Shown: positions 18,766 to 22,780 of the stretch, piece by piece
Layout: the number at the start of each line of letters is the position of its first letter
Position numbering within the stretch: the stretch's first letter is position 1
Assembly (NCBI GenBank): GCA_029858565.1
Contig: JAOUEV010000003.1
Coordinates: 64,001 to 128,000, forward strand
Direction: 5' to 3'
DNA length: 64,000 nucleotides
Source of the DNA: Nitrospirota bacterium
GTDB lineage: Bacteria; Nitrospirota; UBA9217
The notes under the pieces: generated by a model
Databases searched by the model: none
What the model was told of the DNA's origin: nothing
The model's input: the letters and a program-made list of their open reading frames with translations, nothing else
Program-made: the position numbers and the translations under genes

Positions 18766-19854
18766 ATGAATCCCATTCCCCGAAAAAAAACCCGTCAGAT
18801 CAGCGTAGGCCCGGTGAAGATCGGCTGGGGCGCGCCGGTGGTCGTGCAGTCCATGTGCAACACCGACACGCGCGATGCCGCTGCCACGATCGGTCAGATC
18901 AACCGGCTGCAGGCGGTCGGGTGCGAGCTTGTGCGGCTTGCGGTCCCTGATGAGGATGCTGCACGGACGCTCGGAAGGATCAAGCAGGGTACGACCATGC
19001 CGCTGATCGCGGACATTCACTTCAGCCATACGCTGGCTTTGGAAGCGATCAAGCAGGGCGTGGACGGGCTCAGGATCAATCCCGGGAACATCGGCGGCAA
19101 GGACAAAGTGAGCGAGGTCGTTGCAGCATGCAGGGACCGGAACATCCCGATCCGGATCGGCGTGAACGCGGGCTCGCTGGAAAAACATCTGCTCGAAAAA
19201 TACGGCCATCCCACGCCCGAGGCAATTGTTGAGAGCGCCTTCGGCCATATCCGCATCCTTGAAGAGCTTGATTATCAGAACATCAAGGTCTCGCTCAAGG
19301 CATCGGACGTGCTGACCACGGTTGAATCCTACCGGTTGTTCTCGAAACGATCCGATTATTCGGTGCATATCGGCATTTCCGAGGCAGGCACACTTCACTC
19401 GGGAACGATCAAGTCCAGTGTCGGTCTGGGCATTCTCCTGTCCGAAGGCATCGGCGACACCATGCGGGTATCGCTTACGGCCGATCCGGTCGAGGAGGTC
19501 CGCGTTGCTTACGAGATCCTGAAGTCACTCAGGATCCGGCAGCGGGGCGTGAACATCATCTCCTGCCCCACCTGCGGCAGGACGGAGATCGATATTATCG
19601 GCCTGGCCGAGACCGTGGAAAAGCGGCTCAGCCATATCACCGAACCGCTCACCGTGGCGGTAATGGGCTGCGTGGTGAACGGGCCGGGCGAAGCGCGCGA
19701 GGCCGACATCGGCATCGCCGGCGGCAAGGGAACCGGTCTCCTGTTCAAGCATGGGGAGATCGTGAAGAAGTTCGATGAGAAGGAACTGGCGGATGTGCTG
19801 GTGAGGGAAGTGGAAAAGATCGTGAGGGAGAAAGAATCGTCTCGTTGTGATTGA
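18766..19854 (+). CDS. ispG: HMBPP synthase
   Basis: VQSM, ADIHF, RINPGN, CPTCGR, MGCVVNGPGE. Confidence 0.97.
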   Translation: MNPIPRKKTRQISVGPVKIGWGAPVVVQSMCNTDTRDAAATIGQINRLQAVGCELVRLAVPDEDAARTLGRIKQGTTMPLIADIHFSHTLALEAIKQGVDGLRINPGNIGGKDKVSEVVAACRDRNIPIRIGVNAGSLEKHLLEKYGHPTPEAIVESAFGHIRILEELDYQNIKVSLKASDVLTTVESYRLFSKRSDYSVHIGISEAGTLHSGTIKSSVGLGILLSEGIGDTMRVSLTADPVEEVRVAYEILKSLRIRQRGVNIISCPTCGRTEIDIIGLAETVEKRLSHITEPLTVAVMGCVVNGPGEAREADIGIAGGKGTGLLFKHGEIVKKFDEKELADVLVREVEKIVREKESSRCD

Positions 19855-19886
19855 CAGGAATCGGGGCAACTCGGATAATAACTGCC

Positions 19887-20177
19887 ATGGGAATCGACGA
19901 ACTTATAAAAGATAAACGAACTGAAATCCTCCGCATCGCCGAGAAGCACGGTGCCTACAATGTCCGTATTTTCGGGTCAGTAGCCCGCGGCGAAGCAGGC
20001 CCTGCCAGCGACATTGACATCCTGGTCGAGGTGGGGCAAAAGCATTCGTCCTTTTTCCCCGGCGGTCTTGTCGCTGATCTCGAAGAGCTCCTCGGCCGGC
20101 GTGTGGATGTGGTCACCGTGAAGGGATTGAACAAGTTTCTCCGCGATCGGGTGCTGAGGGAGGCTGTGGCGCTTTGA
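19887..20177 (+). CDS. Minimal nucleotidyltransferase (MntA-type antitoxin)
   Basis: FGSVARGE..SDIDILV, LGRRVDVV; start at MGIDEL. Confidence 0.88.
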   Translation: MGIDELIKDKRTEILRIAEKHGAYNVRIFGSVARGEAGPASDIDILVEVGQKHSSFFPGGLVADLEELLGRRVDVVTVKGLNKFLRDRVLREAVAL

Positions 20178-20420: not shown

Positions 20421-22115
<1,695 letters not shown>

Positions 22116-22164
22116 GGACGTGACACGTGATGCGTATGACGTGGAGCGTAAGGGGTACGGGGAA

Positions 22165-22419
22165 ATGCAGGAGCAGGACCTAGCGAAGATCAGAGCAATC
22201 ATAGAAGAGCGGAACGTCCGTTATGCTCCCAAGGGAGGCAGCGTTACCCTTGCGGGTATCGAGGGCGGGACCGTGAAGATCGCGCCTGCGGGATTCTGCT
22301 GGCGGTGACATGTGACCCGTATAGCCCTGGTCGAGGGCTTGCAGGAAAAGTTGAAAAAGGAGTTTCCCTGGGTTGAACAGGTCATTGTGATCAACCTGGA
22401 TAAGACAAAAAAAGCTTGA
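22165..22419 (+). CDS. NifU/NfuA C-terminal-like selenoprotein (84 aa, CWRU motif)
   Basis: GGSVTL..IEGGTVKI...GFCWR-TGA(22306-22308)-HVTRIALVEGLQEKLKKEFPWVEQVIVI continues the NifU pattern across the TGA; SECIS-like hairpin follows. Confidence 0.75.
22319..22342 (+). promoter_or_regulatory. Putative bacterial SECIS element
   Basis: AGCCCT-GGTCG-AGGGCT stem-loop, extendable by GTA/TGC around a bulged T, starting 11 nt after the in-frame TGA. Confidence 0.65.
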
Positions 22420-22473
22420 ATTTCAAGGACAAAGTTCCTATAATTAAATTCGTCATCGGAGGGAGCGCAACCC

Positions 22474-22701
22474 ATGGACGAGTCTATCAAGATCTCGCTT
22501 ACGCCCCAGCAGAGCGCGGAGATCAAGAAACAGATCGGATTCGAACTTACCGAGATATACCTCACCAAACGTTCACTGAACAAGCTTCGTGTCTTCCGGC
22601 TGCGCCTGAGCGAGGAACAGCAGGAGCAGATCACCGAGGCTTGGGGTCAAAAGGTGAAAGAATTGACCGTGACCCGCTCAGTCGCCACCCGGATAATGTA
22701 A
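22474..22701 (+). CDS. Hypothetical 75-aa protein with two internal repeats
   Basis: GGAGGGAG RBS; ISLTPQQSAEIKKQIG versus LRLSEEQQEQITEAWG. Confidence 0.65.
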   Translation: MDESIKISLTPQQSAEIKKQIGFELTEIYLTKRSLNKLRVFRLRLSEEQQEQITEAWGQKVKELTVTRSVATRIM

Positions 22702-22780
22702 TTGAGAGAATGATCGCGCCGCGCAAGGGGCGCGCAGGTTTATTGTTGGTCCAGACCGAATGCGAAGGGAGGTGATTCCT

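Follow-up and report, generated by a model that had tools for sequence, protein, structure and literature searches.

A candidate selenocysteine-encoding gene of the Nfu family in Nitrospirota

Nfu carriers and known selenoproteins

Single-domain carriers of the Nfu family (PF01106), such as CnfU of Arabidopsis (PDB 2z51), the C-terminal domain of human NFU1 (2m5o), and SE0630 of Staphylococcus epidermidis (1xhj), have a CxxC motif that binds an iron-sulfur (Fe-S) cluster. In the decoding model of Escherichia coli fdhF, a hairpin that follows an in-frame UGA codon is recognized by SelB, and selenocysteine (Sec) is inserted. Both themes appear to meet at one locus of a member of the phylum Nitrospirota (lineage UBA9217, assembly GCA_029858565.1). 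The window analyzed here is a stretch of 64,000 nucleotides, positions 64,001 to 128,000 of contig JAOUEV010000003.1, and the gene in question, hereafter Sec-Nfu, occupies its positions 22165 to 22419. Judging from the sequence and its comparison with relatives, we consider Sec-Nfu to be a real, conserved, and misannotated Sec-encoding gene of the Nfu family with a probability of about 0.88; this figure refers to the nature of the gene and excludes the biochemical role of its product.

The 2026 table of the prokaryotic selenoproteome comprises 119 families and subfamilies (PMC13188914). Among the families of cluster proteins for which this review reports Sec are the HesB-like proteins, HdrA, MvhD, and CopZ-like 2Fe-2S proteins (PMC13188914). 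The HesB-like selenoprotein (TIGR01911), an A-type Fe-S-carrier homologue for which the same review reports experimental verification (PMC13188914), resembles Sec-Nfu in being a small stand-alone homologue of Fe-S carriers with Sec in the region of a conserved Cys motif. However, the two are unrelated in fold and family, the HesB-like motif is UxGP instead of CxxU, and HesB-like selenoproteins are found in both archaea and bacteria.

The gene and its predicted product

The features of the gene are as follows.

22165..22419, plus strand: Sec-Nfu gene, 84 codons and a stop; ATG at 22165-22167, in-frame TGA as codon 48, terminal TGA at 22417-22419
22297..22308, plus strand: C-W-R-U motif; Cys45 (TGC), Trp46, Arg47, and the predicted Sec48 (TGA, 22306-22308)
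22319..22342, plus strand: hairpin resembling a Sec insertion sequence (SECIS), within the coding sequence; lower stem 22319-21/22340-42, bulged T 22322, upper stem 22323-28/22334-39, loop GGTCG 22329-33
22150..22155, plus strand: Shine-Dalgarno-like AAGGGG, 9 nt 5' of the ATG, a putative ribosome-binding site

With genetic code table 11, the frame opened by ATG 22165 closes with ...VKIAPAGFCWR at TGA 22306-22308 and yields a product of 47 residues. Past this codon, the frame gives HVTRIALVEGLQEKLKKEFPWVEQVIVINLDKTKKA up to the second TGA at 22417-22419. The homologues of Sec-Nfu start at a Met equivalent to that of ATG 22165.

The read-through product of 84 residues matched the NifU profile PF01106 with 38.3 bits (cut-off 27) over profile positions 2-67 of 67. 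Comparison of the family profile with solved Nfu domains placed C-W-R-[TGA] on C-G-S-C of 2z51 and C-G-T-C of 1xhj, and thus the TGA corresponds to the second Cys of the cluster-binding CxxC. An earlier note, made from the letters of this stretch, had placed the TGA at the second Cys of the NifU pattern, which both the PF01106 match and the alignment to 2z51 and 1xhj bear out. Profile matches in PDB comprised 2z51 (2.7e-7), 1xhj, 1veh, 2m5o, and 2jnv.

The AlphaFold model, based on an alignment of 15 sequences (predicted local distance difference test 79.4, predicted template modeling score 0.60), has an alpha-beta-beta-alpha-beta arrangement with a helix at residues 2-23, strands at 26-33 and 36-42, a second helix at 46-66, and a strand at 72-75. 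In this model, C45-W-R-U48 is located at the junction of strand 36-42 and helix 46-66, at the N-terminus of the helix. Foldseek retrieved three matches with E <=0.001, all of them Nfu domains: CnfU 2z51 (template modeling score 0.70), 2m5o (0.79), and 1veh. No thioredoxin-fold entry was among the Foldseek matches listed, and the protein does not fall into the class of thioredoxin-fold CxxU (SelW-like) proteins.

Thus, by profile hidden Markov model, PDB profile, and predicted fold, Sec-Nfu has the same domain as the single-domain carriers. It is also of the same length class (ordinary Nfu proteins of the related genomes and of the host have about 73 residues) and retains the first Cys as well as the site of the second ligand, where helix 2 starts. 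Of the ligand pair of CxxC, the first Cys is retained and the second position is UGA/Sec, so that Sec-Nfu represents a homologue with a changed ligand, a chemical analogue of the CxxC form. The spacer is W-R rather than G-S, G-T, or A-G, C-P-x-S is replaced by U-H-x-T-R, the identity to these carriers is about 21%-33%, and, unlike in them, the coding sequence contains a SECIS-type hairpin. The divergence of the CWRU spacer had been pointed out in the earlier note, together with a loss of the usual DGG. The former was confirmed, while the latter is only partial: the copy in the window reads K-G-G-S against a family consensus of R-G-G-D.

The motif is strongly conserved. In 15 sequences of family f1, to which the host belongs, Cys45, Trp46, Arg47, the TGA, and His49 are invariant, and the longer stretch G-[F/Y]-C-W-R-U-H-x-T-R-x-A-L-V shows little or no variation. 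Across 29 loci fetched from three families (f1, f13, and f24), the Cys, the TGA, and the next His are kept in all 29, and a few loci have Trp replaced by Tyr or Arg by Gln or Ser, with variants such as GFCYR-U-H, GYCWR-U-HMTR, and GYCYS-U-H. The sequence C-P-x-S/A after the second Cys, a trait of Cys-type Nfu, was not observed in any Sec-Nfu read, all of which have U-H-x-T-R. By comparison, 29 of the 30 Nfu sequences read from Chloroflexota have C-P-M/S-S/A (C-Q in the remaining one), and the Cys-type Nfu of Nitrospirota also has C-P-M/S-S/A. The ordinary Nfu with G-A-C-G-S-C-P-M-S is present in Nitrospirota, Chloroflexota, and the host genome itself (contig C74), and is about 33% identical to Sec-Nfu. 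Since the host has this ordinary CxxC Nfu, Sec-Nfu is an extra divergent paralogue rather than the housekeeping Nfu.

Conservation of the UGA codon

A search of 5.8 billion predicted proteins gave 17 matches, 16 of them beyond the window's own, and all ended right after C-W-[R/K/G/Q], covering 54%-56% of the query. When 1.84 billion representatives were searched exhaustively with the family profile (111 matches, 16 sequences fetched), the top matches were N-terminal halves whose alignment stops at profile position 47 and C-terminal halves whose alignment begins at 50 or 53; the best full-length Cys protein scored 45.9 bits, versus 81.6 bits for one half. No close Cys orthologue of the Sec-Nfu subfamily was found in either search. 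Public records contain such truncated halves, for example, a 46-residue "hypothetical protein" of a Nitrospirota metagenome-assembled genome (MAG) in NCBI, and others named "NfuA" (NCBI, JGI). Among the matches of the profile search, P0031 (1,184 residues) and P0043 (733 residues) align with the central part of the profile several times over, in 11 and 6 stretches, respectively. P0133, a cluster member of 421 residues, has no Nfu segment; by eye it looks like a diaminopimelate decarboxylase and seems to be mis-clustered.

When 61 related genomes were searched in six frames with read-through of stops, 16 gave a strong match interrupted by a single in-frame TGA, and all 16 loci had C-W-[R/Q]-TGA-H-x-T-R. 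In an even sample of the phylum Nitrospirota (401 genomes), the TGA form was present in 35 genomes, namely 24 of family f1, including the host (G000), 3 of the 5 sampled from f13, and 8 of the 14 sampled from f24; the 29 loci mentioned above were fetched from these families. A scan of named-species genomes with a subfamily-specific pattern yielded 18 loci, all from MAGs designated Nitrospirota, Nitrospirae, Nitrospiria, or Nitrospiraceae. The same scan gave four short matches in Anaerolinea, Prevotella, Kangiella, and Psychrobacter, which were rejected as spurious. Sec-type Nfu was not found in 401 genomes of Chloroflexota, 29 of which had a match; the 30 loci fetched were all of the Cys type. 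Therefore, among the genomes searched (401 of Nitrospirota, 401 of Chloroflexota, and the named-species scan), Sec-Nfu was found only in Nitrospirota. In contigs of four other public metagenome runs, positions 22306-22308 had no listed difference, while the third codon positions 22305 and 22311 vary.

The part of the gene behind the TGA evolves as a protein. For 15 orthologues (105 pairs), the 27 codons 3' of the TGA had a proportion of nonsynonymous differences (pN) of 0.17 and of synonymous differences (pS) of 0.59, with a median ratio of nonsynonymous to synonymous substitution rates (dN/dS) of 0.20; the median dN/dS of the 40 codons 5' of the TGA was 0.25, so both parts are equally constrained. 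The codon after the TGA encodes His in all 30 distinct sequences, of which 15 use CAT and 15 use CAC. Beyond the TGA, the nearest in-frame start codon occurs at codon 2 in 11 of these sequences, at codon 5 in 9, at codon 8 in 3, at codon 11 in 5, at codon 15 in 1, and is missing in 1.

SECIS-type hairpin

The hairpin GTATAGCCCTGGTCGAGGGCTTGC (22319-22342) opens at the 11th base after the TGA and consists of a 3-bp lower stem and a 6-bp upper stem; folded alone, it has an energy of -10.6 kcal/mol. The earlier note had reported a hairpin with a bulged U and a GGUCG loop 11 nt after the TGA, and it is present as described. The stem-loop criterion used for bacterial SECIS elements relies on the bSECISearch numbers.

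Comparison with relatives is the reason why we judge the hairpin to be beyond chance. In 30 distinct sequences the six pairs of the upper stem are paired in 92.2% of the cells, and three of the pairs have compensatory changes. None of 500 column shuffles equaled the real alignment in its share of paired cells, its count of doubly changed cells, its pair types, or its covariation score, and shifting the partner by one column lowered upper-stem pairing to 57%-75%. RNAalifold predicted the identical six pairs. The basal pair of the upper stem is AU in 12 sequences, GC in 8, GU in 2, and UA in 1. The 3' base of this pair opens a Leu codon (UUR/CUN), where the change is synonymous, and therefore protein constraint cannot explain this covariation. 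A second covarying pair changes from CG to AU or GC. In family f24, an inner C-G is replaced by A-U via Ala-to-Asp and Gly-to-Val substitutions. Every hairpin loop read contains GU, encoded by the conserved Leu-Val. In families f13 and f24, the register of the hairpin is shifted, the bulged base is an A, and the loops include GGUCA and GUG.

Other putative SECIS elements of the same genome have a similar layout. The loop GGU of Sec-Nfu lies 20 nt past the UGA, the same spacing as in selD-1 (loop AGGUC), and two genes for selenoproteins of the formate dehydrogenase (FDH) type carry a GGUCU loop at a distance of 18 nt from the UGA. Thus, the Sec-Nfu element shares with E. coli fdhF and with the host selD-1 and FDH-type elements a hairpin just 3' of the UGA in the coding sequence and a GGUC loop, with the host elements the GGU at 18-20 nt after the UGA, and with fdhF a U bulged below the upper stem. 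It differs from fdhF-type elements in that its upper stem is only 6 bp long, its lower stem is poorly conserved, and its register shifts in f13 and f24.

Selenocysteine machinery of the host

The host genome encodes selA and selB, adjacent on contig C101, two selD paralogues, each with one in-frame TGA, and tRNA-SeC with the anticodon tca (found by aragorn). The presence of selA, selB, selD, and tRNA-Sec had been proposed as a check in the earlier note, as had a search for homologues with Cys or TGA at this site; relatives keep the TGA at the same site along with the downstream frame and the hairpin, and distant Nfu homologues have Cys there. Hence, neither of the two findings that the note regarded as fatal, namely a genome devoid of Sec machinery or a frame and hairpin not conserved and thus a nonsense pseudogene, was obtained. 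Among the related genomes that carry the gene, selA was found in 14 of 16. Contigs C3, C14, C24, C41, and C7 of the host carry the two TGA-containing selD genes and three FDH-type genes with an in-frame TGA.

Several observations count against a Sec-encoding gene. As a single sequence, the 71-nt region folds at chance level (z = -0.59; 54 of 200 shuffles fold as well), and no Rfam SECIS family was found at the hairpin, the three Rfam matches being at chance level (E >=3). The lower stem is weak, with the pair 21-42 formed in 6 of 16 sequences, and the SECIS of the main FdhA of the host looks different. Searches of two of the 16 genomes that carry the gene, G005 (completeness 89%) and G009 (completeness 96%), found neither selA nor the SelB wing domain; since both contain a Sec-type selD, a missing contig is the likelier reason. 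The copy of genome G031 (locus L023, G031:C3:377415-377650), which belongs to the 16 loci with the TGA, is split over two frames, being frameshifted upstream, and the database variant P0020 (65 residues) continues after C-W-R with 18 residues of unrelated sequence. The selA gene of G031 is also in three pieces, and for this genome assembly frameshifts are likelier than decay.

Proposed decoding and possible roles

With the ribosome at UGA 22306-22308, SelB loaded with Sec-tRNA(Sec) would recognize the GGUCG loop and the bulged U of the hairpin; Sec would be inserted as residue 48, and translation would proceed to the stop at 22417. The product would be a stand-alone Nfu domain of 84 residues, with C45-W-R-U48-H49 in place of the cluster-binding CxxC that begins helix 2.

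By analogy with its relatives, Sec-Nfu may act as an Nfu-like carrier in which Cys45 and the Sec48 selenolate hold an Fe-S cluster that bridges two subunits and is handed on to client proteins. We favor this role because of the homology and because Sec has precedents in other families of cluster proteins, and we rate it somewhat below even odds. More specifically, a dimer could hold a [4Fe-4S] cluster by two Cys and two Sec residues, with Sec48 as a genuine selenolate ligand of a dedicated carrier, a proposal that we regard as tentative. If so, a weaker or labile Fe-Se bond or a lower redox potential could make Sec-Nfu a specialized donor for particular anaerobic clients, and a Cys version might not be viable, which would explain Sec in all 35 genomes. 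Such a protein would be the first carrier of the Nfu class with a genetically encoded selenium ligand.

A second role, nearly as likely as that of a carrier and thus also tentative, is that C-W-R-U-H forms a redox center in which Cys45 and Sec48 cycle between the selenol/thiol and selenylsulfide states, for example, in reducing persulfides or polysulfides in sulfur or Fe-S trafficking. The C-terminal domain of human NFU has thioredoxin-like activity. The predicted position of the motif at the N-terminus of a helix is consistent with a redox role. Two features speak for it and at the same time against a carrier. First, the flanks are unlike those of carrier Nfu proteins: an invariant His replaces Pro after the second Cys position, Trp and Arg fill the CxxC spacer with slight variation, and the following Thr and Arg are kept in all sequences read. 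Second, the genome retains a canonical CxxC Nfu. The failure to find a Cys orthologue of the subfamily also agrees with redox catalysis, since it suggests that selenium chemistry is needed. Moreover, according to the 2026 review, a redox function is assumed for most selenoproteins with a CxxU or UxxC motif (PMC13188914). On the other hand, the fold and closest relatives of Sec-Nfu are those of Fe-S carriers, not of thiol oxidoreductases, and no redox partner gene is conserved adjacent to it.

Other readings of the UGA codon

It is improbable that the UGA is read without selenium, either by near-cognate insertion of Trp, Cys, or Arg or under an alternative genetic code. UGA followed by C is a leaky termination context, and C follows the UGA in all 30 sequences, a point in favor of such read-through. 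However, this reading leaves the covarying hairpin and the complete Sec machinery unexplained. A reassigned code is contradicted by the use of TGA in the host: selA, selB, and proS have no internal TGA, selD and the three FDH-type genes have a single one each, and Sec-Nfu itself terminates at TGA. The absence of TGA inside selA, selB, and proS and the terminal TGA of Sec-Nfu indicate that it is not a general sense codon.

Least probable is a nonsense pseudogene, or a pair of small genes composed of the 47-residue product and a frame from GTG 22312, two codons past the TGA in the window: gene callers do annotate the locus so, and N-terminal halves, along with a few C-terminal ones that begin with V-T-R or V-S-L, are on record in the databases, but the TGA is kept in the 35 genomes of three families, neither half alone makes a complete Nfu fold in the model, and the purifying selection on both halves, the His codon invariant as protein with synonymous variation in DNA, and the shifting first start codon exclude decay as well as an independent second frame.

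Novelty and significance

No NifU/Nfu entry is present in the 119-family table of the May 2026 review (PMC13188914), and NifU, Nfu, and PF01106 are absent from the examined passages of the 2022 review (PMC9312934). The same three terms have no occurrence in the examined main texts and supplements of BSepDB (PMC13326102) and deep-Sep (PMC12013277). Full-text literature searches found no paper on a NifU/Nfu selenoprotein; subscription papers and further supplements could list the family. In NCBIfam release 20.0, no dedicated selenoprotein model, including TIGR01911, was found for the product, and NifU and NfuA gave sub-threshold scores of 19.6 and 18 bits with cut-offs of about 270. Sec-Nfu is therefore new relative to the selenoprotein catalogues examined, while mechanistically it is conventional, with a SECIS of the standard bacterial type. 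Public annotation cuts the gene at the UGA, which makes the family invisible in databases.

If confirmed, Sec-Nfu would be an extra family of the prokaryotic selenoproteome and would extend selenium to a second class of Fe-S biogenesis proteins, after the HesB-like proteins. Since all copies found are of the Sec type and the host also has a normal Cys Nfu, it offers a clean case for comparing selenium and sulfur at a CxxC site that binds a cluster or is redox-active. Because the GGUC loop and bulged U are like those of the fdhF element, it may be possible to express the gene in E. coli.

Genomic context

The neighboring genes on both sides are as follows.

20421..22115, plus strand: proS, prolyl-tRNA synthetase, upstream neighbor of Sec-Nfu with a gap of 49 nt
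22474..22701, plus strand: orf75, a conserved open reading frame (ORF) of 75 residues, with a promoter-like site at 22416-22444 and a terminator-like site at 22715-22734

The order ispG-proS-[Sec-Nfu]-orf75-lipoprotein-gspE-corC is common to the named loci, and proS lies upstream of Sec-Nfu in each of the 17 related named loci whose sequence extends to this region. The genomes of these loci are close kin (intact copies of proS are 79%-87% identical), and therefore the shared order reflects inheritance rather than linkage. The product of orf75 is 76%-89% identical in 18 of 18 related named loci and is better conserved than Sec-Nfu. A 10/12 sigma-70-like site at 22416-22444 overlaps the stop codon of Sec-Nfu upstream of orf75, and a terminator-like hairpin at 22715-22734 follows it. 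No family was found for orf75 in Pfam or NCBIfam, and its Atlas matches were all <0.9.

The orf75 gene is absent beside the Sec-Nfu copies of families f13 and f24. The neighbors there (loci L081 and L083-L085; genomes G064, G198, G307, and G239) encode a radical S-adenosylmethionine protein of the MnmL/YtqA type for tRNA modification (TIGR01212, 305.8 bits), a nitroreductase, and an SLOG/TIGR00725 protein; the MnmL gene of the host is on a separate contig from Sec-Nfu. No conserved partner gene, including one for a redox partner, was found beside Sec-Nfu in the named loci or in the f13 and f24 loci.

In the window, the 567-nt gap between ispG and proS contains an ORF for a nucleotidyltransferase of 108 residues (PF01909, MNT-like) at 19851-20177 on the plus strand. 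No HEPN-like partner ORF of at least 30 residues was listed beside it. In several related loci, the ispG-proS gap is only about 70-140 nt long.

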